The notes beneath the pieces are model-generated. The model searched no databases and was not told where the DNA came from. It saw only the letters and a list, made by a program, of their open reading frames with translations. 40,334 nucleotides of DNA from positions 1 through 40,334 of the IMG/VR virus record IMGVR_UViG_3300032218_000672; one strand, written 5' to 3'. The DNA comes from a virus. Taxonomy: Duplodnaviria; Caudoviricetes. This document shows, in pieces, positions 10,001 through 40,163 of the stretch. The translations under genes were made by a program, and so were the position numbers. Every line of letters begins with the position of its first letter. Position 1 is the first letter of the stretch.

Positions 10001-11647
10001 AATTTGGCCGACAACAAAACGGTGCAGGATGTTCTTAATGCGGAGACTATGCAAACAGTCACCATTATTGGCCAGCGTCCAACTCCCACACCGACGCCGA
10101 CACCAACTGTAACTCCAACACCGACAGTAACTTTTATTGACCCTAACATAATCAAAGTTACCCCAACACCTACGCCAACACCCACTCCAAGTGTTACACC
10201 GACCCCTACACCGACCCCAACACCTACTCCTACGCCTGATGTAACACCTACACCAGTCGTTACCCCAACACCAAGCGTTACACCTACTCCAACTCCAACA
10301 CCGAGTGTTACGCCTACCCCAACACCGACTCCAACACCGACAGTAACGCCTACGCCTACTGTTACACCTACACCTACACCTACACCCACACCCACACCCA
10401 CACCCACACCCACGCCTACGCCTACGCCTACGCCTACGCCAAGTGTCACTCCTACACCCACGCCTACGCCCACCCCAAGCGTCACACCAACGCCGACCCC
10501 AACTCCAACTCCAACTCCAACTCCAACTCCAAGCGTAACGCCCACACCCACGCCTACCCCAACTCCAAGCGTTACGCCTACACCTACACCGACGCCTACG
10601 CCAAGCGTTACTCCGACTCCGACTCCGACTCCGACTCCGACTCCTACGCCTACGCCGACTCCTACTCCTACTCCTACTCCTACGCCAACACCTAGCCCCA
10701 GTCCGTCGCCTAGCCCTAGCCCATCGCCAAGTCCTAGCCCAACACCGACTCCCACGCCGACGCCTACTCCGACGCCGCCTGTTACGCCTACGCCTACGCC
10801 GCCAGTAACACCGACGCCTACGCCGACTCCTACGCCTACACCGACCCCGTCGGTTACGCCCACGCCAACTCCGACGCCAAGCGTTACACCGACTCCTACT
10901 CCCACGCCAACTCCAACATCGACGCCGACTCCTAAGCCAACGTCTAAGTCATCGGCTGGGGTACAGGCGGCGATGACATCTCCCGGCGTATCTGGGACAA
11001 TTGAGCCATTGAAAGCTGTAATGCTTCAGGCGTTCATGACCAGAGACAAATTTAAAGACCCTCTGGAAAAATTGCATTTAATACAGGAAGCCTCTGGTAG
11101 GGCTGAGCAAAATATGATCAATCAAGGAATTAACCCTCGATTAGCCCAAATCATGGCTGATCGCATGACGGACGACGTATCCGACCAAGCTGGTGTTGAA
11201 TCCCCCTCAGATTCCTCATGGCGCTATGGCCAAACCCCAGAAAACCTTGACGACTTGTTTGGTCAAAAACAAGAGCTGGCATTTAAATCTGGTGGTTTTG
11301 TAGCTCCCTTGCAAATGGCCTCTGGTGGTGCAATGCCTTTGCCTTTGTTGGTCAAGTCAGGTGGGGCTTTACCTAGAGGCGATGGCAGATTAGACTTCAG
11401 GCATGGCGCTCACGTTGCTGGTGAGGGTGACGGGCAGTCTGATGACATTAAGGCAATGCTGGCTGATGGTGAGTTTGTGTTCCCTGCGGACGTAGTTTCT
11501 GCGCTAGGAAATGGCTCAACTAAGGCTGGATCAGATAAACTATACGAAATGATGCATTCAATACGATCACGCGCACGATCCAAGGGGCCCAAGGATCTAC
11601 CGCCACCTGCATTGAAGTCACCACTTGATTACCTGAAAAAACGGTAA
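7025..11647 (+). CDS. Giant internal virion / ejection protein with Pro-Thr repeats and tape-measure-like C-terminal domain
   Basis: 1540 aa; PT tracts; hydrophobic Gly/Ala middle region; C-terminal [24 protein letters not shown] motif; lies after the nozzle gene. Confidence 0.7.
7666..7876 (+). repeat. Pro-Thr coding repeat tract 1
   Basis: (CCN ACN)n with Val interruptions, about 70 codons. Confidence 0.95.
10079..10940 (+). repeat. Pro-Thr/Pro-Ser coding repeat tract 2
   Basis: About 285 codons; higher-order SVT(PT)n units and perfect hexamer runs (ACACCC)x5, (CCAACT)x5, (CCGACT)x5. Confidence 0.97.
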
Positions 11648-24945: not shown

Positions 24946-25184
24946 GCATGGCTGTGATCAAGAGCGTACGTGTTGCGCTCCGCGGAATACCTGATGGCAT
25001 GACCTTGGAGGAGCTGTCTGAATTGTTAAACCGACCAAGGTGTAACGTCAGGAAGGTTTTAAAGAACATGCCAGACGTGTACATCGACAGGTGGGAAGTG
25101 GCGCCAAGAGGCCAGTACAAGGCCGTTTGGTGCGTGGTTGTACCGCCGAACGATTGCCCAAGGCCCGACGGAAAAAGCGCATGA
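24942..25184 (+). CDS. Small winged-HTH protein
   Basis: DGMTLEELSELLNRPRCNVRKVL HTH; MPDVYIDRW. Confidence 0.65.
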   Translation: MSMAVIKSVRVALRGIPDGMTLEELSELLNRPRCNVRKVLKNMPDVYIDRWEVAPRGQYKAVWCVVVPPNDCPRPDGKSA

Positions 25185-25699
25185 ACTTCAAGACGCCAGA
25201 GGAGCGAAGCGCCATAGCCAAGAGGGCGCACGCCACGCGCAAAGCCAACAAGGAACTGCTTGAAAAGAAAAGGCAGGAAGCGTTGGTCTACCCTGACTGG
25301 CTGAAAATTCAAATTGTGGCACTGGAAACAAGGCTGGCTGAACTGAGCAAGTTTGAGAAGATGAGCGTCGTCTCTGTTGCTTTAACCAACAAAACCTTGC
25401 TTGACGGTGAGCAGATAGCCAAGCTTGCATTACCATGGGAAAAGTCAAGTGGAGTTTATTTTCTGGTGCAAGATCAAGAGGTGGTGTATGTTGGCCAGTC
25501 GGTGAATGTCTATTCTCGGATAGCCCAGCACGTTGACAAAAAGTTTGATAAGTATGCCTTTGTGCCGTGCGAGGCGGAGCTGTTGGATAGGCTAGAGTCG
25601 CTGTACATTCACACTCTAAAGCCCCGTCTCAATGGCAATTTTAACAAGCAGGAAAAGAGCGCGCCAATACGTTTGGACAAGCTTTTAACTTTAATTTAA
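25181..25699 (+). CDS. GIY-YIG nuclease-domain protein with N-terminal coiled coil
   Basis: SGVYFL...VVYVGQS.N...RI..H...LE..YI...KPRLN. Confidence 0.8.
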   Translation: MNFKTPEERSAIAKRAHATRKANKELLEKKRQEALVYPDWLKIQIVALETRLAELSKFEKMSVVSVALTNKTLLDGEQIAKLALPWEKSSGVYFLVQDQEVVYVGQSVNVYSRIAQHVDKKFDKYAFVPCEAELLDRLESLYIHTLKPRLNGNFNKQEKSAPIRLDKLLTLI

Positions 25700-25711
25700 A
25701 GAGAACAACGA

Positions 25712-26578
25712 ATGAGCGATCCCTACAAAATCATTGAGCCAACCTGCATCAGTTTTTCTGGCGGCAGGACGAGCGCTTACATGCTCTATCGGGTTTTGGA
25801 GGCTAACGACATGCGCCTGCCAGAGGGGGCAATCGTTTGTTTTGCCAATACGGGCAAAGAGGACGAGGCAACACTTAAGTTTGTGCAAGACTGTTCCGTA
25901 AACTGGAACGTCGAAATTCACTGGCTAGAGTGGCGCAACAACGATTTGGGTTACGAGCGCGTCACATTTGAAACAGCCAGCCGAAATGGTGAGCCGTTTA
26001 TGGACATGTGCATTAAACGTAAAGCCTTGCCAAACGGGTTTATGCGGTTTTGCACAAAGGAATTAAAAATTGATGTTGTTCACAAGTACATCAAAGATGT
26101 CGGAATTGGAACTATTGATAACCCATGCGCTCAAATGGTGGGCATTCGTTCTGACGAGCAAAGGCGTGTTGCCAAAATGAGGGGTAAAAGTGGAGCTGAC
26201 CATAAAAAAGATTGGATTGGTGATTTTTTAGTACCACTAGCCGATGCCGGCGTTGTTTCGACACATGTTGGCGAGTTCTGGGAAAAACAGCCGTTCAATC
26301 TGCAAACCCCGATGTACAACGGAAAAAGCTTTCATTCAAATTGTGATTTGTGTTTTCATAAGCCCGTTGCCCAGTTGGTTTCCCTTGTACGTGAGAAGCC
26401 AGAGAGGGCCGTTTGGTGGGTGGAGATGGAAAAGTACGCTAAAGACAACTTCGCCAAGAGCGTCGTTCACTTTTCAAGAGACCATCCTCCGTACGAGCAG
26501 ATTGCCAAATATGCATTTGATCAACGAGATATGTTTGACCAAGACGAAGAGGCCATCGCCTGCTTCTGTGGGGAATAA
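25712..26578 (+). CDS. PAPS reductase-family (PP-loop) protein
   Basis: SFSGGRTS, FANTGKE, RFCTKELK, GIRSDE..R, NCDLCFHK, terminal CFCG. Confidence 0.85.
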   Translation: MSDPYKIIEPTCISFSGGRTSAYMLYRVLEANDMRLPEGAIVCFANTGKEDEATLKFVQDCSVNWNVEIHWLEWRNNDLGYERVTFETASRNGEPFMDMCIKRKALPNGFMRFCTKELKIDVVHKYIKDVGIGTIDNPCAQMVGIRSDEQRRVAKMRGKSGADHKKDWIGDFLVPLADAGVVSTHVGEFWEKQPFNLQTPMYNGKSFHSNCDLCFHKPVAQLVSLVREKPERAVWWVEMEKYAKDNFAKSVVHFSRDHPPYEQIAKYAFDQRDMFDQDEEAIACFCGE

Positions 26579-27163: not shown

Positions 27164-27721
27164 ATGGCCAAGAAACAAAAAAGTCTTTCCAGCGACCCTG
27201 TCGCCGACGTGACAGTTGAGCCGCAAACAAAGAAAGAGACAAAGATGGGCAGACCTTCCATATACACGGAAGAGCTTGCTCATGAGATATGCGTAAGGCT
27301 AGGATCAGGTGAGAGCTTACGTAAGATCTGCTTGGATGAGCGTATACCGCACATAGCGACAGTGATGAGTTGGTTGACCAAGAAGCCTGATTTTCTCGAA
27401 CAATACACACGCGCACGCGAAATTCAAGCTGAGACTCAGTTTGATGAACTGATCGACATTGTTGACCAGCCGCCTGAGCTGAGCCACATAACCAACAAGG
27501 ACGGTGAGCTGATCGAGGTCAAGTTCGACTCCTCCTACGTACAGTGGATGAAGCTTCGGGTCGACACGCGCAAGTGGACAGCCGCACGTATGGCGCCTAA
27601 GAAGTATGCTGAGTACAGAGCGCCAGACGAGAAGGTTGACTCCATGGTCATCGACGGAGAGATCAAGACGGTCATGGACGTGGCCATCAAGCGCCTTGAG
27701 CTGATCAGGATCGCTGAATGA
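27164..27721 (+). CDS. terS: Terminase small subunit (Sf6 gp1-like)
   Basis: GRPSIYTEE...GESLRKIC...TVMSW...Y.RARE...KLRVDTRKW...PKKY; precedes terL. Confidence 0.88.
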   Translation: MAKKQKSLSSDPVADVTVEPQTKKETKMGRPSIYTEELAHEICVRLGSGESLRKICLDERIPHIATVMSWLTKKPDFLEQYTRAREIQAETQFDELIDIVDQPPELSHITNKDGELIEVKFDSSYVQWMKLRVDTRKWTAARMAPKKYAEYRAPDEKVDSMVIDGEIKTVMDVAIKRLELIRIAE

Positions 27722-29151
27722 GCGAGGTCATAGACCAAGACGTTCTGGACATCCTCGGTGACCCGAACATCAGGAAGAGTCTAGGCCCCTACCACTCTAT
27801 GGCATACGCCAGACGGGCTAAATGGCTCTCAGGCGCGTTCAATCACCAGAAGCTACCCCAAGGTACGTATTGGTCAATCTGGCTTATGCTGGCTGGCCGT
27901 GGCGCAGGGAAAACGAGAACAGCCGCTGAACAGCTCTGGTGGTGGGCGTGGGAAAACCCGAACACCCGCTGGCTAGTGTCCGCCCCCACATCAATGGACG
28001 TGCGCGGCACATGCTTTGAGGGTGAGTCAGGGCTGATCGCCGTGATCCCCGAGATCCTGATCAAGGACTACAACAAAGCCCTGCATGAGATCACGCTGAT
28101 CAATGGGAGCCTGATCAAGGGCATATCAGCAAACGAGCCTGATCGTTTCCGTGGTGGCCAGTACCATGGTGCATGGCTGGACGAGCTGGCCGCTTGGGAC
28201 TTCCTCGACGAGGCTTGGTACAACATCCAGTTTGCTGTCCGCCTCAAGAAGGCTGACGGTCGCACCCAGATCATTGCCACCACCACGCCGCGGCCAAAGG
28301 ACTTGATCGTAGAGCTGGTAGGCAGGGAAGGCGACGACGTAGCGCTGACCACCGCCTCGACCTACGTCAACCTAGCCAACCTTGCGCCAAGCTTCCAGAA
28401 GCAGATCCTCAGCTATGAAGGAACCACCATAGGAAGGCAGGAAATCCACGCAGAGCTCATAGACCCAGAGGAGTCAGGCATCGTCAAGCGCGACATGTTC
28501 AAGCTGTGGGCGCCGAACAAGCCGTTCCCCAAGTTCGAGTACATCCTACAAAGCTACGACTGCGCCAGCTCAGAGAAGACGGTCAACGATCCTACGGCGT
28601 CTATCACGTTCGGCGTGTTCAAGCCGCTAGACGGCCCAATGTCGGCCATGGTGATCGACTGCTGGCAAGACCGCCTGCAATACCCAGACCTGCGCCCCAA
28701 GGTGATCGAGGAGTACGACGTGGTCTACGGTGAGGGCAAGGACAAGAAGCGGGTTGACCTGATCCTAGTGGAGGACAAGTCCGCAGGTATCGCGCTGATC
28801 CAAGACTTACAGCGTGGCCACCTACCCGTTCGGGCCTACAACCCCGGCAGGGCTGACAAGATCCAGCGCCTGAACATTGTGTCCAACATCATTGCCGCTG
28901 GCCGTGTGTGGATCCCTGAGAGCAGTGTCAGGAAGGGTTACGTCAAGGACTGGGCCGAAGGGTTTGTCTCCCAGATCTGTAGCTTCCCTGATTCGACACA
29001 CGACGACTTTGTGGACGCCTGCACCCAAGGCCTGCGGTTCCTACGCGACGCTGGCTGGTTGGACATCGACGGCGCGCCAAGGGACGACTACGACATGGAC
29101 GACTACATCGATAGCGGACGTCGCAAGCTTGAGAACCCGTACGCCGCATGA
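27718..29151 (+). CDS. terL: Terminase large subunit
   Basis: Walker A AGRGAGKT, Walker B AWLDE, TTTP, nuclease QSYD and HDDFVDA. Confidence 0.95.
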   Translation: MSEVIDQDVLDILGDPNIRKSLGPYHSMAYARRAKWLSGAFNHQKLPQGTYWSIWLMLAGRGAGKTRTAAEQLWWWAWENPNTRWLVSAPTSMDVRGTCFEGESGLIAVIPEILIKDYNKALHEITLINGSLIKGISANEPDRFRGGQYHGAWLDELAAWDFLDEAWYNIQFAVRLKKADGRTQIIATTTPRPKDLIVELVGREGDDVALTTASTYVNLANLAPSFQKQILSYEGTTIGRQEIHAELIDPEESGIVKRDMFKLWAPNKPFPKFEYILQSYDCASSEKTVNDPTASITFGVFKPLDGPMSAMVIDCWQDRLQYPDLRPKVIEEYDVVYGEGKDKKRVDLILVEDKSAGIALIQDLQRGHLPVRAYNPGRADKIQRLNIVSNIIAAGRVWIPESSVRKGYVKDWAEGFVSQICSFPDSTHDDFVDACTQGLRFLRDAGWLDIDGAPRDDYDMDDYIDSGRRKLENPYAA

Positions 29152-29210: not shown

Positions 29211-31853
29211 ATGGCTGAACGCAAACCCTCCGACGACCGAGCCGCCTTTGGCGTGTTCCCACAGCTACAGCGCAACAGGTCTAGGCAAGATCGTGAGGCG
29301 GCAAAGAACGTCCCTGTGGATCTGGCCCGTGGGTTTGTCTCTGGCGTTCTGGGCGCTCCCGGCGACATCGAGTCCCTGATCCGCATGTTGCCCTACCTCG
29401 ATGAGAAGACCATCCTGCCAACGAGCGAGGACATCGAGAAGCGTTTGCCTTTGAGATCAGAGACACCCGTGAGCAAGGCCGCCACTGGCTTGGGCATCTT
29501 GGGCGGTGGCTTCTATACGGGCCCCGGCTCCCCTCTGCGTGTGGTCGGTGCACTGCCCAGCGCTATCAAGCACGGCGCCCAAGAGTTCGCCAAAGCAACT
29601 GTGGCTGGCGCTCCTCATGTGATCAAGCCATCAGGTAAGGGAGCCAACTGGTTAGGTGGCCAGCGTGGAAGCGTGGAAGCCCAGCTTGGCAAAATGAAGA
29701 TGGCTGACTACACAACTCCCGAACAAATGACTGAGTTGCAAAAGTCAATTGATACAGCCAAAAGAATCATGGGTGATGACCCTGAAGTTCAACGTGCCGT
29801 CGGTCAAATGGAAAATGAGTTGTCAACTGCCAAGCGCAACAACGCGGTCAACTCATGGATTGATAGTAATCTGCGCAACTACGTCAAGAACCAAATGGCC
29901 ACGCCTAACGACCCTGTTCGCAAGCTTGCTGAAGAAGGCATCTTGCATATGGCGCCTTATGGAGAACAAGGAGTTGTGTCGTCCCGCTTGATGAACAAGC
30001 GTATGGGCTTAGGACAAGATCCGTTAGGCATGGGGCGCAGTGATCCCGCTAGATTCTGGGAGCGCTTGAGCGACATCTCTGTTGACGCCTATCCTGCTGG
30101 CTCATACAAGCACGGTTCGTTAGATGAGTCCCTGCTTAAAGACAACCCATGGCTTCAAAAGATTCCCGATGAGACCATGATCTACAGCGGCAAAGGGTTG
30201 GGTGGCGATCTTGGCTTTGACCATATCATCGATGTACTGCGCCAAGATGTACGTGAAGGCCGTATTCGCCCTGAGCAACTGAATAAAGTCAGCATGGAGC
30301 AAGCCGTGCGTCGTGTCCATGAATACGACCAAGAGATGGCACGTAAGATGGCTGAGACGCAAGCCAAGGTCACCGAAGGTATGCCCATCCATAAAGAATA
30401 CCCAGAGGGCTATAAATGGATTGAGTTGACCAATCCAAAATCAGTGCCTAAAGACTATGCTCTGCCAGAAGGCATGAAGCTGGATACGATTGACCACCCA
30501 AGATATGGTCTTTTGCATACAGTATCTGATCCCAAAGGCATTACACAAATAGAAGCCACAAATTCTCCAGAAGATGCCCTTTTGCGGTTCTACAACAGAA
30601 AAGGCGGAGAAGGGTATAAAGCTCTTGAAGACGCACTGAAGTACGAGGGCAACACCATGGGCCATTGCGTCGGTGGCTACTGCCCAGACGTGGCATCTAG
30701 CCGCTCACGGATCTACAGCTTGCGAGACAGCAAGGGTGAGCCGCACGTCACGGTTGAAGTTCAGCCTGTAGATAAACACCCAATAGGCTATGGAATGTCG
30801 GGCGGGAAGAGCTTTCCTGACGATTTCCGTTACGAAAGCGGAAGCATTGCACCTGAACAACATCAACAAATTTATCAGCGAGCTAAGCAGTTGTTTAACC
30901 CTGAGTTAGCCAGCGACCTTAGTAGTCACCGAATGGATGTCTTCCAACAGGCGGCAAATGAAATCATTGGCAAGCCAGCAGATCAAATTATTCAGATCAA
31001 AGGCAAGCAGAACCTTCGACCTATTGAAAAATACGATCCTTATACACAAGACTTTGTGAAGAGCGGTAATTGGTCTGAAATTGGCGACCTGAAAAACACT
31101 GGGCTGTTTACACCCCAGCAAATCATAGGCGAGACGACTCAAAAAGTTTTGGCGCAGGAAGGCGTACAGCTTCCCAAGCTCATGACTAAAGCAGAAGCTG
31201 ACGATTACATACTTCAAGCTTATAAAACCGTTGCAAAACAAACAAACACAAATATTACGCCACCCGAAGGCATGAAGGCAGGCGGTAAGGTCTCCATATC
31301 CAACAACCGTGACACAATGATGCTTGAGCTAAATAATCGCAAGATGGCAAAGGGCGGCAAAGTTGTCAAAGAATTGCTGGGTGCTTTAAAAAAACCTGAA
31401 ATACCGCCTATGGGAATCAATGTCAGAACAGACAGCAAACTTGACTTGCCTTATGCGGATTTAATTGTGGACGGTCAAAAGCTCTATGAGTCACGTAAAA
31501 CTGATTCGCTTAGACCGTACGTCAACCAGTCAATGTCAATCGTTCGAACTGGAAATGCGCCAGCAAAAGCTATTGGCTCTGTTGATATAGGCGAGCCATT
31601 GATCGTTGACGCAAAAACATTCAGAGAAATGCAAGACAAGCATTTAGTTCCAGAGGGTTCCATGTTTGACATTGAGGCCGAGGGCCAAAAGTATTTGTAC
31701 CCGTTAACCAACCCACGGCGCTTCGAGCAAGAGCTTGACGTTGGTCGCGGCATCAAGGCGCGTAAAGTTATTGTCCCAACGCCAGAAATAAACAAAGCCG
31801 CCGGTGGGGCAATCAATGCTGACGACTTGATCCTAGAGGAGAGACCACTATGA
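29211..31853 (+). CDS. Polyvalent protein: PcfJ-like domain plus C-terminal ASCH domain
   Basis: L.YEG..MGHCVGGY...IYSLRD..GEPHVTVEV...QIKGKQN; PYADLIVDGQKLYESR...AIGSVDI. Confidence 0.7.
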   Translation: MAERKPSDDRAAFGVFPQLQRNRSRQDREAAKNVPVDLARGFVSGVLGAPGDIESLIRMLPYLDEKTILPTSEDIEKRLPLRSETPVSKAATGLGILGGGFYTGPGSPLRVVGALPSAIKHGAQEFAKATVAGAPHVIKPSGKGANWLGGQRGSVEAQLGKMKMADYTTPEQMTELQKSIDTAKRIMGDDPEVQRAVGQMENELSTAKRNNAVNSWIDSNLRNYVKNQMATPNDPVRKLAEEGILHMAPYGEQGVVSSRLMNKRMGLGQDPLGMGRSDPARFWERLSDISVDAYPAGSYKHGSLDESLLKDNPWLQKIPDETMIYSGKGLGGDLGFDHIIDVLRQDVREGRIRPEQLNKVSMEQAVRRVHEYDQEMARKMAETQAKVTEGMPIHKEYPEGYKWIELTNPKSVPKDYALPEGMKLDTIDHPRYGLLHTVSDPKGITQIEATNSPEDALLRFYNRKGGEGYKALEDALKYEGNTMGHCVGGYCPDVASSRSRIYSLRDSKGEPHVTVEVQPVDKHPIGYGMSGGKSFPDDFRYESGSIAPEQHQQIYQRAKQLFNPELASDLSSHRMDVFQQAANEIIGKPADQIIQIKGKQNLRPIEKYDPYTQDFVKSGNWSEIGDLKNTGLFTPQQIIGETTQKVLAQEGVQLPKLMTKAEADDYILQAYKTVAKQTNTNITPPEGMKAGGKVSISNNRDTMMLELNNRKMAKGGKVVKELLGALKKPEIPPMGINVRTDSKLDLPYADLIVDGQKLYESRKTDSLRPYVNQSMSIVRTGNAPAKAIGSVDIGEPLIVDAKTFREMQDKHLVPEGSMFDIEAEGQKYLYPLTNPRRFEQELDVGRGIKARKVIVPTPEINKAAGGAINADDLILEERPL

Positions 31854-34800
31854 GCCTGATCGGAGCATTGACCAAAGCGCTGAAGGCTGGTGAGACAGCC
31901 AAGAAGACTGCACCTTTCTACTCCACCGTCGATGAGGCGCTGGCCAACATTGCCAGACCTAAAGGTACAGGCGCCGAGTTCTACACCGAGCTGACCAAAC
32001 AGCCCGGCGTGAAGAAGGCTGAGCTGGCCGACCGCAAGCTTGAGCAGGCATTCAAGGCCAAGGGCAAGATGACCAAGGAGGAGGCTCAGCAAGTCCTAGC
32101 TGACAACCCACCGCCTAAGCTCAAAGAGAAGGTGTACGACGAGTCAACTGCTATAGACGAGGCAGACCTTCGAGAGATGGTGGCTCAAGAGATGTTTGGT
32201 AAACCATATAGCAGAGTCACAAACGGTGGCCAGCGTGCGCGTATATCTGATGAAGTTTATAGACGCATGGACATGGACAACGGAACTCAGTATGGACAGT
32301 ACAAAACTGCTGGTGGTGAAAATTACCGCGAGATGTTGTTAAAGTTGCCATCAGAGAGGCCGTATGCTGGCAACTACTCAGACCCAGCCAAGTACGATGC
32401 TGACCTAAAAGCGTACAACGCCAGCGGCAAAAAAGACTACGTAACGCAACATTGGAAGGATGATGCCAACGTCCTAGCCCATATGCGCGTTCAAGACCGT
32501 GCTGGCCCCAATGGTGAGAAGATCCTGCATGTCGAAGAGATCCAATCCGACTGGCATCAGAAGGGCCGTAAAGGCGGCTATGCCAATGAACCCGCGTATC
32601 AAGAAGCTCGCAAAAAGGCTGACGAGGTAGCAAGGGCCGCAGGCTATAACGATGCTTTCCATGCCGCTGAAGGTTGGAAGGGTCACGGTATGCAAAGCGC
32701 AAAAGAAGCCAGCGATATGCTTGACGAGGCCTCCAAGTTCAGCTCAGTCAATTCAGTACCTGACGCCCCGTTCAAAAAGAACTGGCACGAGCTGGCCATG
32801 AAGCGCCTGCTGAACTACGCCGCTGATAACGGGTATGACAGCATTGCTATTACTCCCGGTGCAGAGCAAGCAAACAGGTACAAGTTAAGCAACGTCGCCA
32901 ATCAAATTTCATATCACCCCGACGACAAAGGCCGTGGCATGTTTCTGAACGTGTTTGGCAAAAACAATGAAGTCATCTACAGCAAGCTGACGCCCGAGAC
33001 CGAACTTCCTAATGTTATTGGCAAAGAAACGACAGATAGGCTATTGGCGCAGGCGCCAGACGACGGTAACCGTGTCCTAACAGGACTTGACCTTGAGGTC
33101 GGCGGCGAAGGCATGAAGGGCTTCTACGACAAGATGCTTCCCGACTACCTGAACACCTTTGGCAAACAGTACGGCGCTCAGGTTCAGCCGTTAACATTTG
33201 ACGTGCCTGTACCATCTATTGATCCAAGAACAAAAATGACGACAACGCATTCGGTTCACAATTTCCCCATCACGCCAGAGATGCGCCAGCAGATCCAGCA
33301 AAAGGGTTTGCCGCTATACCAACAGGTTGCTATCCCAACCGCTGGCGCGGCTTCACAGCTACCAGAATTTGAATTTGAAGAACCAAAAGCTAAAGGCGGA
33401 GCTATACATATGCCAAAGAACGCAAGCAGAGATACCATGTGGCTGGCCACTCAAGATCAGAAGTTTTCCAAGGGTGGCGTCACCAAGGTAATCACAGAAG
33501 GCTTGGAGGCGCTTGGCATCACCAAGAAAGGCATGGAAGGCGTCAAACAGCTATCCGCTGAAGAGAAGGCCGTGCTTGAGAAGTGGGGCCAAAAGCAAGC
33601 TCAGGAAGCCGAGCGCGCTAAGAAGGTTGAGAAGATGGCCAAGGACAGCGCCAACAAGTCCCCTGAAGATTCCGTCAAGCCAGCCAAGGCCAGCACAGGC
33701 AAGCGTACAGCAACGCCCCCAGACTTCTACCGCAAGATGGCTGAGACACAAGGCGACGAGGCAGTTCTGAGAGCCGCTCGGGCTGGTAAGCATTTAAAGC
33801 CAGATACCTCTGGTGGCTACATTGGCGCTCCCCGTACGGTGGACAGCCCCCAAGCTTTGGGCAAGATGCGCCGCGACCTTGACCAAGACTTCATCGACTC
33901 GGTTGATGCTGTAAGGCTGGCCGATCCTGTTCGTTTAGGTACGTGGTACGACCGCGCCAAATCAGGCATGGCCCAGATGACCGAGCCTTACCAACTGCCC
34001 AGAACCCTAGAGCAACACGGCGTCTATAGCGCTGGCGTAGCGCCTGAGTCCGAGCTGACCTTTGCCCTCAAGCACTTAAACAGCCGCAACTACGGTGAGC
34101 CTAAGATGGCCTACCGTGGTGCTGGTATGCGAACCCTTGACAGATCCGTGGCCGCTGACGAGCCAGCAGAGATGGGTTTTAAAATTGGTGAGTACGCCGA
34201 TAAGAACGATCCACGCCTGCCAAACACTGGATTGTTCGGTGTGAACGACTTCCGCCGCGCTCAAGGTATGGGTTACACAGATCCACAAGGTAACCCGTGG
34301 AAAGCTGGCGTGTCCGACACAATGCACCCCTTCATGGATCTGGAAACCGCCTTGCAGGTGGATCGGGCCAACAAAGGTGTAACAGGTGGCCGCTCAGATT
34401 GGTACGGCCCACACATTCAAGAACTGCCTTGGGTGTACGGTAAAGCGCAGGATCTGTACTCCCGCGGCGCCAGCAAGACTGGCCGCTACGGTGGAGATCC
34501 CCTAGAAGGCATCAAGATGGCCCTACAGGACGCGAACAAGACCGCCATCGACTATGCCTACAAGCATGCTGGTTCTGCGACTCATGAGGCGATCCCCGGG
34601 GCTTCTACTGGCCACGTACCCGGCATGATCGACGCCCCCTTAAGCGAGCGCATTGCATACGGCAACGAAGGTCGTTGGGATCGTCCATCCCCTGAAGCCG
34701 CATTGAGCGAGTTCCCAAAGGTGGGCGCCGGCAACCGAGACGCAATCTATTCCGCTTTGGGCTACCGCCAACTGCCAACGATTGAGGCGTCAGGCGCCTA

Positions 34801-35623
34801 TCTGCCAGAAGGTGCGTCAGCTTACGAGATGCAACCTGTCAAGATTGCACGTCCTTTGCTCGACTTCCCCACTGGTGGTGAGGGCTTGATTGCCCCAGAG
34901 ACCAAGCAACTGATGGACTTCTCTGAGCGCTTTCGTGCCTTGAACGACGCACAAGAGGCATTCGGCTATAACCTGCCAAACACCATGGGCGACGTTGGCG
35001 GTAAGACTTCCGCGGTGCTCGACACCCGTAGGATCAACCCTGACAGGAACCTTGATCCTGCTACTGGCGTCCCGCCTTCAGCCGACCAGATGGGCGCATT
35101 GACAGCCGCTCTGGGTGACAGTGGTTATGGCGTGGCCCCAACAAGCCGCGGTGCAACCATCTTCCCGTTTGATCCAAGCGCCAGCCCCAAGGATATGGCT
35201 AAGTTGTTGAAGAGCAAGCGCGAAGAGCTACAGAGCATCTACCCATCTGAGATGGAAGCTTCGCTTAACAGCTCGGGCTACGGCCCCGGCGTTGGTAAGT
35301 ACACCCCCGAAGGCTTCACCGCCTCCGAGCCGTTCAGTGGCCAAGCAACCAAAGGCTTGCTCAAGGAAGCCTCGTACCTACCTCAGTCTGCTGTGCAGAA
35401 CCTGAGCGAGTCAGAGTTCGTGCGTCAAGCCATCAAAGAGAAGATGCGCCGTGATGCCGCCCTGCCAAATGCTCGTGAGGACATCCAGAACACACGCAAG
35501 TTCTTTGCTGAGGCTGATTGGGCTAAAGCGGTGGAGCTGATTCGCAAGGGCATGAGCCCCACAGCCGCACTGGCCGCGTTGGGTTACTCAGCGTCGTCGA
35601 TGGCTGGCGAAGCTGATCGATAA
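31850..35623 (+). CDS. Large polyvalent protein: EEIQSD (GNAT-like) module plus HhH-glycosylase-like module
   Basis: NYRE.LL, LHVEEIQSDWHQKG, PFKKNW...KRLLNYAADNGYD, GMKGFYD; second half has WY...S...K...GVNDF.R...Q..W. Confidence 0.6.
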   Translation: MSLIGALTKALKAGETAKKTAPFYSTVDEALANIARPKGTGAEFYTELTKQPGVKKAELADRKLEQAFKAKGKMTKEEAQQVLADNPPPKLKEKVYDESTAIDEADLREMVAQEMFGKPYSRVTNGGQRARISDEVYRRMDMDNGTQYGQYKTAGGENYREMLLKLPSERPYAGNYSDPAKYDADLKAYNASGKKDYVTQHWKDDANVLAHMRVQDRAGPNGEKILHVEEIQSDWHQKGRKGGYANEPAYQEARKKADEVARAAGYNDAFHAAEGWKGHGMQSAKEASDMLDEASKFSSVNSVPDAPFKKNWHELAMKRLLNYAADNGYDSIAITPGAEQANRYKLSNVANQISYHPDDKGRGMFLNVFGKNNEVIYSKLTPETELPNVIGKETTDRLLAQAPDDGNRVLTGLDLEVGGEGMKGFYDKMLPDYLNTFGKQYGAQVQPLTFDVPVPSIDPRTKMTTTHSVHNFPITPEMRQQIQQKGLPLYQQVAIPTAGAASQLPEFEFEEPKAKGGAIHMPKNASRDTMWLATQDQKFSKGGVTKVITEGLEALGITKKGMEGVKQLSAEEKAVLEKWGQKQAQEAERAKKVEKMAKDSANKSPEDSVKPAKASTGKRTATPPDFYRKMAETQGDEAVLRAARAGKHLKPDTSGGYIGAPRTVDSPQALGKMRRDLDQDFIDSVDAVRLADPVRLGTWYDRAKSGMAQMTEPYQLPRTLEQHGVYSAGVAPESELTFALKHLNSRNYGEPKMAYRGAGMRTLDRSVAADEPAEMGFKIGEYADKNDPRLPNTGLFGVNDFRRAQGMGYTDPQGNPWKAGVSDTMHPFMDLETALQVDRANKGVTGGRSDWYGPHIQELPWVYGKAQDLYSRGASKTGRYGGDPLEGIKMALQDANKTAIDYAYKHAGSATHEAIPGASTGHVPGMIDAPLSERIAYGNEGRWDRPSPEAALSEFPKVGAGNRDAIYSALGYRQLPTIEASGAYLPEGASAYEMQPVKIARPLLDFPTGGEGLIAPETKQLMDFSERFRALNDAQEAFGYNLPNTMGDVGGKTSAVLDTRRINPDRNLDPATGVPPSADQMGALTAALGDSGYGVAPTSRGATIFPFDPSASPKDMAKLLKSKREELQSIYPSEMEASLNSSGYGPGVGKYTPEGFTASEPFSGQATKGLLKEASYLPQSAVQNLSESEFVRQAIKEKMRRDAALPNAREDIQNTRKFFAEADWAKAVELIRKGMSPTAALAALGYSASSMAGEADR

Positions 35624-35835
35624 CGATTGCGCTTGTACCATGTCTCAGCGCCAAACGACATACCTCTACGATACGCCGATTGCTTTGGCGCCTCGAGGTC
35701 TTCGATACGCTCTTCCAGCTCTTTCTGCTTTCCGAGAAGGCACTCAATTACGTGCGCGCATTCCTCAAACATCGAGTTTGAGTTACCATCCTGTGATCTC
35801 AGGAATTGGATTGCTTCGTATGTTCGGTCTTCCAC
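35584..35835 (-). CDS. Lone antisense-oriented 83-aa hypothetical protein
   Basis: GTG start after AAAGGGGA; coiled-coil segment; occupies an otherwise empty 270-nt gap. Confidence 0.5.
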   Translation of the reverse strand: MEDRTYEAIQFLRSQDGNSNSMFEECAHVIECLLGKQKELEERIEDLEAPKQSAYRRGMSFGAETWYKRNRYRSASPAIDDAE

Positions 35836-35851
35836 TCTTTTCCCCTTTATT

Positions 35852-35893
35852 AAAACGCAATGTTTGCGTTCGGGTATTTTAACACAAGGTTAA
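35852..35893. promoter_or_regulatory. Operator pair between divergent genes, upstream of the portal
   Basis: AAAAC-gcaat-GTTTG (35852) and TTAAC-acaag-GTTAA (35879). Confidence 0.6.
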
Positions 35894-35897
35894 AGCT

Positions 35898-38447
35898 ATG
35901 GCAACACAGTTCCCCCAAGATCCCAATGCAGGTCGTTTTATAGACGGCTTGAACAACAGTCAGGTTGAAGCTGACGAGGGCGTTGAATATGAGATGCCAC
36001 CAGAGGACGCAGAGATTGAAGAGCTCCCTGATGGATCGGCCATTGTGCACATGGAGAGCAAGGGCCCCATGGAGGACGAAGACTTCTACGCCAACTTGGC
36101 TGAGGAAATTTCACCCTTTGACCTGAACAAGATCGCTTTGCGGTACATGGACTTGGTCGAGAACGACAAGAAGTCTCGTGAGGAGCGCGACAAAAAGTAC
36201 GAAGAGGGACTTAAACGTACGGGTATGGGGAATGATGCGCCGGGCGGTGCCACCTTCATGGGCGCCAGCAAGGTCGTTCACCCTGTCATGGCCGAAGCCT
36301 GCGTGGACTTTGCCTCCCGTGCCATCAAGGAGATGTTCCCACCTGACGGCCCCACCCGCACCAAGATCTTAGGCGACGTGGACGAGCAGAAGATTCAAAA
36401 GGCTGAGCGCAAGCGCGACTACATGAATTGGCAGTTGACCGAGCAGATCGAAGAGTTCCGCGACGAGCAGGAACAGATGCTGACTCAGCTCCCTTTGGGC
36501 GGCTCACAGTACATGAAGCTGTGGTACGACGAGAAGAAGAAGCGTCCCTGCGCTGAGTTCATGCCAATCGACAACATCCTACTGCCCTTTGCCGCGGCCA
36601 ACTTTTATACAGCCCAGCGTGTTACTGAGATGCAGACCATCACCGAGTGGGAGTTCAAGAACCGCATTCGCTCAGGTCTGTACCGTGACATCGACTTGGT
36701 TCGCGTAAGCGCTGAGCCAGAGGAAACCCACTCCGAGAAGGCCAACAATAAGATTGAAGGCCGCAAGTGGGACGACAACGAGGATGGCCTGCGCAAGGTC
36801 TATCACATCTACACATGGCTGGAGCTGGAGGACGACCCACTGACCAACGGTGAGTCCGCCCCCTACATCCTGATGGTTGACGAGCACGAGAACGAGTGCG
36901 TTGGCTTGTATCGTAACTGGGAAGAGGGCGACGAGACACAGACTAAGCTTGATTGGTTAGTCGAGTTCAAGTTCATCCCATGGCGTGGTGCGTACGCTAT
37001 TGGTCTGCCACAGCTCATAGGAGGCCTCTCCGCGGCCCTTACAGGGTCGCTACGCGCTTTGCTGGACTCTGCCCATATCAACAACGCCGCAACCATGCTC
37101 AAGCTCAAGGGAGCAAAGATCTCGGGCCAGTCCCAACAGGTCGATGTGACTCAGGTGTGTGAGATCGAAGGGGCTCCCGGCGTCGATGACATCCGCAAGA
37201 TCGCCATGCCCATGCCTTTCAACCCACCTTCCGCGGTCTTATTTCAGCTTCTGGGCTGGCTAGACGGTGCGGCCAAGGGGGTAGTGACCACCGCAGAGGA
37301 AAAGATCGCTGACGTTAACTCCAACACCCCAGTTGGAACCACCCAAGCTTTGATCGAGCAGGGCGCCGCGGTGTTCTCTGCCATTCACTCACGCCTGCAT
37401 GACAGCCAAGGCCGCGTTCTGAAGATCCTTGGACGCCTGAATCGTTGGTACTTGGAAGAGCAACGCAAGGGTGAAGTGGTCGCAGATCTGGATATTCGCA
37501 AGGAAGACTTTGCATCCAACACCGATGTGATCCCTGTCTCTGACCCACACATCTTCTCTGAGACCCAACGTATGGCTCAGAGTCAGGCTGTGATGCAGAT
37601 CATGAAGGAAAACCCTGATCTGTTCAATCGCAAGGTGGTGGTTGAGCGGTTCCTGAAGCAGATCAAGGTTCCCGGCATTAACGAGATCATGATTGACGTG
37701 CCAGCCCCAGAGAAGCGCGACGCGCCGAACGAGAATGTGGCCATGATGCTGGGCCAAGCCGCCTTTTCCTACATGGAACAAGATCATTTGGCCCACATCC
37801 AAACGCACTTGGAGTTTTTCAAAGACCCAATTTTTGGCTCAAACCCTATGGTCACGCCAATTATCTTGCCTCGCATGATGGAGCATATCAAGCAACACCT
37901 GTCCATGTGGTACCTGATACGCATGAACGGCTATGCAACCAAAGCTTTGGGACGTGCCACGGACGACTACGACAACCCACAGGTTACTGCACAGGCCGAC
38001 AAGCTTATGGCATTGGCCTCACAGAACGTCACCTTGGACACTCAGAAGGTTTTTGCGCAGGTTGTGCCAGAGTTGCAGAAGATGATGCAGATGATGCAAC
38101 AGTTCAAGCAGACTCAGACCCCTCCAATGACCCCAGAGGCTCAAGTTTTGCTCCAAACAAGCATGGCCGAGACCCAACGCCTGACAGCAAAAGACCAAGC
38201 GGACAATCAACTGAACGTCCAAAAGCTTCAAAACCAACAACAACTGGACGTTGCCAAGCTCACGCAGAGCAAAGAGCAGTTCAGCGCCGAACAACAGCTC
38301 GAAGTGGCGATGCAAACAGAGAAAAACCTCACCCAAGAGCGCATAGAGTCTGCAAGATTGACGCGAGACGCGGCAAAACTGCAACAAGAGCAGGTAAAAA
38401 CTGCAACCCAGCTTCAAAACGAAGCACAAACCTACTTAGGAGGCTGA
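35898..38447 (+). CDS. Portal protein (podovirus type, long C-terminal Gln-rich barrel)
   Basis: 849 aa; HPVMAEACVDF, FPPDGP, PVGTTQALIEQG, IPVSDP; position after terL and before the scaffold-like gene. Confidence 0.85.
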   Translation: MATQFPQDPNAGRFIDGLNNSQVEADEGVEYEMPPEDAEIEELPDGSAIVHMESKGPMEDEDFYANLAEEISPFDLNKIALRYMDLVENDKKSREERDKKYEEGLKRTGMGNDAPGGATFMGASKVVHPVMAEACVDFASRAIKEMFPPDGPTRTKILGDVDEQKIQKAERKRDYMNWQLTEQIEEFRDEQEQMLTQLPLGGSQYMKLWYDEKKKRPCAEFMPIDNILLPFAAANFYTAQRVTEMQTITEWEFKNRIRSGLYRDIDLVRVSAEPEETHSEKANNKIEGRKWDDNEDGLRKVYHIYTWLELEDDPLTNGESAPYILMVDEHENECVGLYRNWEEGDETQTKLDWLVEFKFIPWRGAYAIGLPQLIGGLSAALTGSLRALLDSAHINNAATMLKLKGAKISGQSQQVDVTQVCEIEGAPGVDDIRKIAMPMPFNPPSAVLFQLLGWLDGAAKGVVTTAEEKIADVNSNTPVGTTQALIEQGAAVFSAIHSRLHDSQGRVLKILGRLNRWYLEEQRKGEVVADLDIRKEDFASNTDVIPVSDPHIFSETQRMAQSQAVMQIMKENPDLFNRKVVVERFLKQIKVPGINEIMIDVPAPEKRDAPNENVAMMLGQAAFSYMEQDHLAHIQTHLEFFKDPIFGSNPMVTPIILPRMMEHIKQHLSMWYLIRMNGYATKALGRATDDYDNPQVTAQADKLMALASQNVTLDTQKVFAQVVPELQKMMQMMQQFKQTQTPPMTPEAQVLLQTSMAETQRLTAKDQADNQLNVQKLQNQQQLDVAKLTQSKEQFSAEQQLEVAMQTEKNLTQERIESARLTRDAAKLQQEQVKTATQLQNEAQTYLGG

Positions 38448-38448
38448 A

Positions 38449-38604
38449 ATGGCTACATCTAACCCTTATCACAACGAAGCAGTGCCCATGCACAAGCGTA
38501 TCGCCGCCGGCGAGAAGCTCGATGGCTCTTCTTTGAAGTCCTCTGGCAACTCCCAGCCAGCCAAAAAACAAGGAGGCGCCTTATCGCAAGCTAAGAAAAA
38601 ATAA
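38449..38604 (+). CDS. 51-aa basic peptide (absent from the ORF track)
   Basis: GGAGG RBS; MATSNPYHNEAVPMHKRIAAG...KKQGGALSQAKKK*; TAATG coupling. Confidence 0.65.
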   Translation: MATSNPYHNEAVPMHKRIAAGEKLDGSSLKSSGNSQPAKKQGGALSQAKKK

Positions 38605-38795
38605 TGTTATTCAATTTGGGTGATCTGATCGGCGCAATCAAGGCGCGTCAAGCTGAAATAGCTTCTTCCTTAGCGGCTGGAAACGTCGCGTCATGGGAGA
38701 CGTACCAACGCACGGTCGGCACAAACCTAGGGTTACAAGAAACCCTAGACTTAATTAACAAAATGTTAAAGGAAGATGAAGAAGATGAGCGATAA
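38604..38795 (+). CDS. Small head-module protein
   Basis: 63 aa; LAAG....WETYQRTVG...GL; acidic end. Confidence 0.7.
   Translation: MLFNLGDLIGAIKARQAEIASSLAAGNVASWETYQRTVGTNLGLQETLDLINKMLKEDEEDER
38722..38769. promoter_or_regulatory. Operator pair upstream of groES (inside the 63-aa ORF)
   Basis: CAAAC-ctagg-GTTAC (38722), TTAAC-aaaat-GTTAA (38755); also CTAGGGTT-N6-AACCCTAG inverted repeat. Confidence 0.45.
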
Positions 38796-39219
38796 CCCCG
38801 AAGTGTTGGAAAACGCTGAAGTTAAGTGGGCATTCCCCGCTGTGAATCCGGGTGCTAAGCCATTAGGTGGTCGAATTTTGGTGCAACTACGTCGCACACG
38901 ACAGAAAACGACAGGCGCAGGGATTATTTTGGTGGAAGAGACCAAAGAGACCGAGAAGTGGCAAAACATGGTGGCAAAAGTCATCGACGTTGGCCCTCTC
39001 GCATTCAAAAACCGCGACACGATGCAAGGTTGGCCCGAGGGGTCATGGTGCGAAGTCGGCGATTACATCCGAGTCCCTAAATGGGGCGGAGATAGGTGGG
39101 AAGTTAAGGTAGATGGCGAGGATGATCGTGAAGATCCAGCCCTGTTCATGATCCTGAACGACCACGAAATCATTGCCAAAGTCATTGGTGATCCCCTAGC
39201 TATGAAAGCATTCTTATGA
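38776..39219 (+). CDS. groES: GroES/Cpn10-like co-chaperonin (start may be 38785)
   Basis: KPLGGRILV, GAGIIL mobile loop, VIDVGP, EVGD, ILNDHEIIAKV. Confidence 0.88.
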   Translation: MKKMSDNPEVLENAEVKWAFPAVNPGAKPLGGRILVQLRRTRQKTTGAGIILVEETKETEKWQNMVAKVIDVGPLAFKNRDTMQGWPEGSWCEVGDYIRVPKWGGDRWEVKVDGEDDREDPALFMILNDHEIIAKVIGDPLAMKAFL

Positions 39220-40163
39220 CCACAGAAAACGAACTTGACAAGATCAATGTGACGGAAGAGGCGGACGGTTCAGCCGTTATTGACCTACCTGACAGCATTG
39301 AATCCCCAGACGAGCAGGAAGACGAGCGTGAAATGGCGTCTGGTGGCTCTACAGACGACGATGTAGCCCCTGAAGACGAGACGGAGTACCAACGTGCCCG
39401 TCGTGAGAAACGCCGCGCTAAGCGGGATCTGGCCAAAAAGACAGGCGTCGAGAAGGACATGAAACTCCAGCATTTGGAACGCAAGAACCAAGAACTGATG
39501 GAGCGTTTGTCCGTGGTGGAGCGCAAAACCCACTCTGCCGACCTAGCTCGCATTGATAAGGCCATTGAAGACCAAGAGTTGCGCCTTCAGTACGCCAAAA
39601 TGAAGATTTCAGAGGCGGCAAGCGCGGCTGACGGCCACGCCATGACGGAAGCGCAAGAGATTATGTATGACGCACGTCGTCAAATGGAAGCTCTGACTAA
39701 CTTCAAAAAGGCGGCTATTGAGCCTCGCCAGACCCAAGGAAACGTCCCAGATCCACGCCTGCAACGCCTAGCGTCGAACTGGATGGAACGAAATAATTGG
39801 TATGACCCGAACGGTCGGGACACCGATTCTAAGATTGCAAAGCAGATTGACGAGGGCCTAGTGGCGGAAGGTTGGAACCCAACCGAACCCGATTATTGGG
39901 ATGAACTTGACAATCGCTTGCATAAGTACTTGCCTCACAAGTACAATGACAGCACGGACGTACGTTCGTCTACTAAGAGACCAAGGAGTGTTGTTACAAG
40001 TTCTGGTCGCGAAAGCGTCAATGGAAGCACCAACAGGAATACATTTGTTTTGAAACCAGAACAAGTGCGTGCCATGAAAGATGCAGGCTTTTGGGATGAT
40101 CCCAACAAGCGCGCCAAGATGATTAAGCGATATGCGCAAGAAGCTCGAAACAACTCTTACTAA
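39216..40163 (+). CDS. Capsid scaffolding-like protein
   Basis: Acidic N-terminus, long coiled coil, W...N.W, YWDELD.R, C-terminal helix; position in the head module. Confidence 0.65.
   Translation: MTTENELDKINVTEEADGSAVIDLPDSIESPDEQEDEREMASGGSTDDDVAPEDETEYQRARREKRRAKRDLAKKTGVEKDMKLQHLERKNQELMERLSVVERKTHSADLARIDKAIEDQELRLQYAKMKISEAASAADGHAMTEAQEIMYDARRQMEALTNFKKAAIEPRQTQGNVPDPRLQRLASNWMERNNWYDPNGRDTDSKIAKQIDEGLVAEGWNPTEPDYWDELDNRLHKYLPHKYNDSTDVRSSTKRPRSVVTSSGRESVNGSTNRNTFVLKPEQVRAMKDAGFWDDPNKRAKMIKRYAQEARNNSY

Follow-up and report, generated by a model that had tools for sequence, protein, structure and literature searches.

What does a short glycine-glycine peptide do when it recurs at the domain boundaries of large, otherwise unrelated phage proteins? 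The question is raised by IMG/VR virus record IMGVR_UViG_3300032218_000672 (Duplodnaviria; Caudoviricetes), whose whole analysed stretch of 40,334 nucleotides (nt) is called the window here, and in which two large open reading frames (ORFs), A and B, lie between terL and the portal gene. The original prediction took both products for polyproteins of swappable effectors joined by a linker of about 30 amino acids (aa), which would act as a cleavage, packaging or ejection signal and possibly as a recombination handle. Here we report that these proteins are strings of swappable modules with a tag at the joints, that the conserved unit is this short tag, which is found on non-modular proteins too, and that the tag is, as a tentative reading, an uncut docking label that loads these proteins into the phage head for injection.

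The tag and its cassettes in proteins A and B

The locus is composed as follows:

27718-29151, + strand: terL, left anchor of the locus (Pfam Terminase_6N/6C, PHROG terL)
29211-31853, + strand: ORF A, 880 aa, between terL and portal
29211-31271, + strand: hypervariable backbone M1 of protein A (aa 1-687), with a PcfJ-like segment at 30633-30767
31272-31364, + strand: cassette 1, MKAGGKV, DTM helix and MAKGGKV
31359-31793, + strand: swappable ASCH module M14, with a basic amphipathic helix at its start (Pfam ASCH, E 1.5e-5)
31794-31850, + strand: closing tag KAAGGAI, then protein A's conserved C-terminal tail of 12 residues
31850-35623, + strand: ORF B, 1257 aa, between terL and portal
31850-33385, + strand: backbone M2 of protein B (aa 1-512), with an N-terminal amphipathic helix and a predicted GNAT fold with insertions (core ~32111-33313)
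33386-33481, + strand: cassette 2, KAKGGAI, DTM helix and FSKGGV
33479-35623, + strand: swappable module M8, 712 aa, with a DUF7178-like lead in its first half
35898-38447, + strand: portal, right anchor of the locus (phrog_1216, E 3.2e-19)

Both cassettes were found where the original prediction had placed them, with MKAGGKV (31272-31292), RDTM (31308-31319) and MAKGGKV (31344-31364) in A and KAKGGAI (33386-33406), RDTM (33428-33439) and FSKGGV (33464-33481) in B, as was the further tag closing the ASCH module (KAAGGAI, 31794-31814, in ORF A). A and B are otherwise unrelated, BLASTP of the pair yielding one significant segment, the cassette, with 18/40 residues identical and a pairwise E of 0.001. 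The short tag follows the consensus [FMYKL]-[AK]-x-G-G-x-[VI] and occurs five times in A plus B, compared with a mean of 0.9 and a maximum of 3 in 30 shuffles; because the pattern was derived from these loci, this comparison is partly circular and distant phages serve as the independent test. A six-frame scan of the window with a stricter pattern gave nine matches, namely the five in A and B, two at 11282 and 11315 in a 1540-aa ejection-locus protein that had been missed before, and two on the minus strand that lie opposite other genes; coding-strand matches are limited to these three proteins. Within 26 cassettes the residues GG, N, D, M, K and GG are invariant, the selection pattern having already required GG, D and M. 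The claim that modules open with similar amphipathic helices stood in part: 22/54 of the 12-mers following a tag are amphipathic and basic against a background of 7.1%, and 7/19 M2 N-termini pass the same test, but the window's VTKVITEGLEAL is amphipathic and acidic. The 12-residue tail of protein A is acidic. A second short conserved spacer between tags, of the NYNTAPD type and followed by a tag-like MSDGG, was seen in some relatives (L026:5813, L032:9327, L075:5069 and others).

As to what the tags join, the PcfJ-like match in A (aa 475-519, Pfam E 2.5e-6) was confirmed and covers merely 45 residues of the 687-aa segment, and so was the ASCH domain (aa 747-820, Pfam E 1.5e-5). Protein B had been described as an EEIQSD module followed by an HhH-like module; the former is predicted to have a GNAT fold, and the latter stays a lead to DUF7178 (Atlas score 0.89, below the 0.9 mark), a family that we take to be HhH-like, with no Pfam match for M8. 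For the AlphaFold2 model of M2 (83 sequences; predicted local distance difference test, pLDDT, 75.7), the VIA-align list consisted mostly of proteins with a GNAT fold (top Z 10.9, root-mean-square deviation 3.6, 143 aligned; Z ~9 for the tRNA-acetylating TacT/AtaT), and Foldseek agreed weakly with GNAT (best E 5.6e-3, none at E ≤ 0.001). M2 is predicted on this basis to have a GNAT acetyltransferase fold, a statement about fold and not activity. Among the relatives' modules, M9 is ART-PolyVal (E about 1e-13 to 3e-15) and M5 has a weak Phage_L5_gp82 match (E 0.002), and no family was found for M3, M4, M6, M22 and M23. The window's A and B themselves gave no Pfam match to ART-PolyVal or LPD and no MuF match in Pfam, PHROGs or NCBIfam; of 11 proteins compared with NCBIfam none received a name, and PDB sequence searches with the M2 profile, the capsid protein and the poly-tag protein described below returned no match.

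The ASCH domain, the ART-PolyVal domain of relatives, the PcfJ-like segment and the predicted GNAT fold identify A, B and their relatives as phage polyvalent proteins. Disparate domains stand in one large chain (PcfJ-like and ASCH in A; predicted GNAT and the DUF7178-like lead in B), the genes have a virion/late-gene location between terL and portal, and a catalogued domain, ART-PolyVal, recurs in the relatives' orthologues with variable architecture. The accessible text on the class describes the same large multi-domain chains near virion genes, with GNAT beside ART, and predicts their co-injection with DNA (PMC5512222). Processing by zincin metallopeptidase domains was proposed there (PMC5512222), whereas no metallopeptidase family was found here. 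The main text of that paper (Iyer et al. 2017, PMC5512222) has no repeated junction tag, with 0 occurrences of 'glycine', 'PcfJ' and 'ASCH', and literature searches, which reached few subscription journals, found no description of the tag. The protein class is already described and the tag is the new part; the present analysis adds the recognition of the RDTM helix as a displaced C-terminal tail, a swap test with counts of both hits and misses, the predicted GNAT fold of the EEIQSD module and the contrast with tag-poor CRP-901-type loci.

Module exchange among relatives and the origin of the cassette

A terL scan of IMG/VR returned 453 relatives, the best 80 of which (terL 88-96% identical to the window's) were analysed; 30 of these reach the portal and, with the window, give 31 complete terL-portal loci with a gap of 3.8-7.8 kb. 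The gap proteins contain 256 tag copies in 199 distinct contexts, and cutting them at the tags and clustering the pieces resolved two backbones, M1 and M2, plus a set of add-on modules. There are 22 architectures in the 31 complete loci, a count raised somewhat by artefacts of the splitting and by glycosyltransferase genes inserted in some loci, and near-identical modules sit on unrelated backbones, which bears out the view of these proteins as strings of swappable modules with the tag at the joints. The ASCH module M14, present in only the window, L040 and L041 among the loci analysed, is 97% identical between the window and L041, whose backbones are 48% identical. M8 follows the M2 backbone in the window, L041 and L050 and the M1 backbone in L060, L072 and L077, and is 86% identical between the window and L077 on unrelated backbones (19%). 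The window's M1 is 44-50% identical to M1 of three relatives. A fixed architecture with the cassette inside a folded domain was looked for in the relatives and was not found. The inserted genes, glycosyltransferase family 2 members of 217-246 aa, lie between terL and protein A in L009, L020, L031, L054 and L067.

A test independent of the splitting scored 383 switches between homologous and non-homologous sequence in 84 proteins, and 104 of them fell within 30 aa of a tag (≤30 aa), compared with a random mean of 37 and a maximum of 56 in 2000 draws. A majority, 250/383, lay >45 aa from any tag, within the variable M1 and M2 backbones, and the tag is therefore not the sole swap point; the enrichment and the backbone majority together indicate that tags mark the joints of add-on modules and not all variation. 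A first breakpoint test (188/927 near a tag, 20% vs 10% expected) had scored mostly variable loops and was replaced.

The linker of about 30 aa, proposed as a unit, is a real cassette, but it is made up of three parts: a short tag, a DTM helix that normally ends a protein, and the tag of the next module. The tag is present in 112 of the 120 M2 homologues taken from the protein database and, with 11 exceptions among the distances listed, lies 22-30 residues beyond the M2 core; the DTM helix is the C-terminus in 115, from which it follows that cassette 2 is the normal M2 tail with M8 appended. Cassette 1 is the same M2-type tail on M1, and the cassette as such is the tail of one protein plus the head of the next, left by gene fusion or exchange. 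Across the 80 loci the DTM helix stands inside the chain in 62 cases and at the C-terminus in 25. The RDTM string was dropped as the key signal, since P, K or L can take the place of its R and the helix mostly forms the end of the protein.

It is quite unlikely, in our estimate, that the tag is mainly an evolutionary joint, that is, a flexible basic linker kept via module recombination in an orthologous cassette and lacking a specific partner. The enrichment of junctions near tags would fit such a joint, as would L050, L055 and L074, which have no module between the cassette and the closing tag. The DNA of the window's two cassettes, however, is identical in 55/101 aligned columns with a longest exact match of 7 nt, which places the conservation at the peptide and not the DNA level; the same figures give no support to the suggestion that the two copies provide a handle for DNA recombination. 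Tags occur, moreover, on proteins without swapped modules and in phages with capsid proteins 33-41% identical.

Tags beyond the portal locus and the GEFV domain

The window's gene set (terS, terL, portal, GroES-like, scaffold-like, SU10-type adaptor and three large ejection-locus genes; Pfam, PHROGs) marks it as a podophage-type genome, and within the ejection locus one large gene resembles the DNA ejection family and another has an SLT domain. The capsid region is absent from the window record and was supplied by relatives of 50-57 kb, whose capsid protein is 74% identical to that of Caulobacter phage RW and 35-42% identical to those of CRP-901, HTVC023P, HTVC027P, DSL-LC04, MinM2 and QDWS535, with 19 matching phage records altogether. 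The features of the window that matter for the tag outside A and B are:

11282-11365, + strand: two tags and a third, degenerate tag near the C-terminus of the first ejection-locus protein, 1540 aa (7025-11647)
11405-11587, + strand: GEFV mini-domain of the ejection-locus protein, a predicted beta-hairpin plus two helices
39333-39353, + strand: weak tag-like MASGGS in the scaffold-like protein (39216-40163), kept in relatives, with the final V/I absent

In the relatives, two genes after the capsid gene lies the gene for a basic protein of 338-449 aa, 338-361 aa in the close relatives, with 11-12 tags and a net charge of +35 to +44, and its small basic neighbour has one or two tags in close relatives. 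The poly-tag protein of the complete relative G001 (L087:4366-5451), whose C-terminus is a conserved tag plus a terminal cysteine, falls in a family-less Atlas cluster of 51 viral proteins. A pair of small basic genes (one of them DUF6321; L087:5903-6429 vs L094:14833-15348) stand apart in G001 and form a single gene in G002 and G004, with a tag at the fusion point in G004. In distant phages, tags stand on portal-side large proteins, small basic proteins and an ejection protein, and their number exceeded every shuffle in ctpbd312 (15 vs a maximum of 6), ct7L0027 (11 vs 5) and HTVC027P (6 vs 3), several genomes having been scanned partially for these counts. Tagged proteins of cultured phages include the product of a PcfJ-like gene between terL and portal in DSL-LC04, and gp41, gp47 and gp82 of HTVC027P. 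In the CRP-901-type loci (n = 80), similar portal-side cargo is encoded by individual genes whose products begin with amphipathic helices, and there are 0.33 loose tag matches per 1000 aa vs 1.24. The last tag lay 3-4 residues from the C-terminus in 7/7 hand-picked proteins, five of them poly-tag orthologues, and tag spacing was ≤12 aa in 35/165. A gene annotated 'ubiquitin' lies among the tail genes of a tag-poor relative (L191:34127-34372, MW202796).

The strong basicity of the poly-tag proteins and the K or R found in many tags would suit a small motif of basic residues plus GG that binds nucleic acid and anchors cargo and basic proteins on the packaged DNA. We consider this improbable, as acidic or neutral versions are common (the variable position is E in 17, D in 7 and A in 10 of 77) and the conserved residues are hydrophobic plus glycine.

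The GEFV domain of about 55 residues, which lies behind the tags of the ejection-locus protein, matched 11,907 clusters at E ≤ 0.001 (50% cluster level). It also occurs in stand-alone form in a two-domain gene of MW202675, with 3179 relatives of similar length, and the model of a stand-alone homologue is a beta-hairpin plus two helices (pLDDT 63). A fold search with this model gave matches to its N-terminal helical hairpin alone (Z ≤ 5.9) and listed no known fold for the domain, BFVD returned uncharacterised phage proteins only, and a PDB sequence search with the stand-alone profile gave no match. The domain of DSL-LC04 did match tape-measure proteins in the PDB (8zdo_S of Douge, E 8.1e-5; 8rk3_A of JBD30, E 0.0042), and the window's own domain reached E 0.3 against 8zdo. 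The stretch matched in JBD30 gp46 is the predicted 'hook' 1022-1066 of the published account, as given in its accessible part (PMC11445458). The distal module of siphophage tape measures (JBD30 gp46, Douge gp16, lambda gpH/gpHC) likewise has a tag and then GEFV, with the same predicted hairpin plus two helices, whereas in the present family GEFV ends a podophage ejection-locus protein or stands alone, and the tag is on many other proteins.

Tag and GEFV co-occur in four lineages. GEFV was not found in CRP-901, QDWS535, G006, G007, ct2G2228, ct2os315 or PK1, and the five GEFV-negative phages counted had 0-2 tags each, with a tag excess in 0/5. Co-occurrence alone makes GEFV a candidate binding partner of the tag. 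A complex prediction for two copies of the window's GEFV with cassette 1 scored 0.01 (mark 0.32) and is no evidence either way.

Several further observations concern the neighbouring genes. The 1540-aa ejection-locus protein has long Pro-Thr repeat tracts, its length is ~1450-1900 aa in close relatives and up to ~3000 aa in database matches, and its last ~125 residues are conserved despite this variation; the gene after it matches the DNA ejection family phrog_4287. A GroES-like co-chaperonin (38776-39219) lies immediately upstream of the scaffold-like gene and is kept across this capsid family. A PAPS-reductase-like gene (25712-26578; weak, E 0.017) and a GIY-YIG gene (25091-25699) both precede terS, an 80-aa ORF without a convincing family (35640-35882) separates B from the portal, and a 51-aa basic ORF after the portal (38450-38605) is kept in relatives and RW.

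Docking and cleavage

A and B are presumably head cargo, judging from gene position and polyvalent-protein domains, and the Gly-Gly tag may be the uncut label by which they dock, a reading that we favour tentatively because tags lie 3-4 residues from C-termini, are tandem and polymeric, and no protease family was found in G001. With several tags, a chain would bind more avidly to a repeated site on the inside of the prohead or on the ejection core, the basic amphipathic helix that follows many of the tags may be a second, ejection-related signal, and once injected the modules (predicted GNAT, RNA-binding ASCH and, in relatives, ADP-ribosyltransferase) might modify or shield host or phage targets. 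A precedent is the capsid-targeting sequence of T4, which is borne by internal proteins and Alt and removed by the prohead protease gp21. It is likewise one short peptide common to unrelated head-cargo proteins; the T4 peptide, however, occurs once, at the N-terminus, and a protease of the phage cleaves it, whereas the tag is internal or C-terminal, present in 2-12 copies and without a protease gene found. Encapsulin cargo-loading peptides similarly dock unrelated enzymes by a short motif inside an HK97-fold shell, but differ in sequence, are usually present as one terminal copy and serve cargo that is not ejected, capsid binding of the tag being putative. The crAss001 proteins C1/C2 are likewise large cargo, partly unfolded, stored at the portal crown and ejected, and the accessible part of the review names no tag (PMC10136315).

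A di-glycine protease site is the main alternative, to our mind a somewhat unlikely one: the polyproteins would be cut at head maturation, each freed module would start with its amphipathic helix, the DTM tail would be discarded as a spent packaging signal, and the enzyme would be a host protease, an unrecognised phage gene or the GEFV domain. GG-directed proteases process viral polyproteins elsewhere, as adenain and African swine fever virus (ASFV) pS273R do, and a conserved GG at module joints, the mark of di-glycine processing of the adenain/ASFV type, is present here. Tags stand at almost all joints, and the helices behind them resemble the natural N-termini of M2 and of the unfused CRP-901-type cargo genes, both as cutting would have it. 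Against it, no protease family was found among the ORFs of G001 (Pfam, PHROGs), many of which have no family; the ~55 residues of GEFV are predicted to form a hairpin plus two helices; and little would be gained by cutting tandem tags or tags 3-4 residues from a C-terminus. The match of the capsid protein to 'protease' PHROGs runs through their capsid part. A 182-aa gene (L087:1247-1837) was dropped as a protease candidate, only M1, G81 and G105 being invariant across 9 distant members; it lies between the scaffold and decoration-like genes in 9/9 aligned phages, with phrog_36003 (1339 homologues) as its sole family.

Lambda gpH bears on the same alternative. Its tags at 733 and 778 flank a GEFV-like stretch, which is matched by 1089 phage records and whose link to GEFV is weak (hhalign probability 46.7%). 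The protein is cut into pieces of ~78 and ~14 kDa, with the site and enzyme described as not known in the accessible sections of the source (PMC12617516). A calculated cut at 733 would give 79.8 + 12.5 kDa, near the reported sizes and compatible with them, not decisive. The same source estimates the end of gpH* near residue 710 (PMC12617516), about 20 residues before the tag, and three other GG pairs lie at 709-720, both of which speak against the tag as the site. By analogy with the T4 signal, which is both, docking and cutting need not be mutually exclusive. A wider proposal, which we regard as unlikely, is a tag-and-reader code in which the Gly-Gly peptide, bound or cut by GEFV, would be common to podophage ejection proteins, effector modules and siphophage tape measures and would mark the lambda gpH cleavage site.

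The following points weigh against docking. RW, HTVC023P, MinM2 and DSL-LC04 have a GEFV domain and tag counts inside the shuffled range; one of the five GEFV-negative phages counted, CRP-901, has a portal-side cargo cluster, the other four being uninformative; and the stand-alone GEFV protein's own tags lie in low-confidence stretches of its model (pLDDT <50 at 43-46 and 101-135). To these are added the 250 junctions remote from any tag and the many family-less ORFs of G001, already given, which leave room for an unrecognised or a host protease, and the consideration that one tag per chain is enough for loading, yet nearly every joint is tagged, which fits cutting equally.

To our knowledge, the selection of proteins for loading into the podophage head and ejection through the tail is poorly understood except in T4, P22 and T7. 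Such a putative label, seven residues long and common to cargo, ejection proteins and basic core proteins, allows a direct test in cultured phages (DSL-LC04, HTVC027P), would let injected effectors be listed by sequence in thousands of uncultured aquatic phages, and is possibly usable as a peptide for loading proteins into phage particles, and it also yields a specific and cheap prediction for the cleavage site of lambda gpH. If the tag-and-reader code were true, phages could recruit any enzyme to the head by fusion behind a tag.

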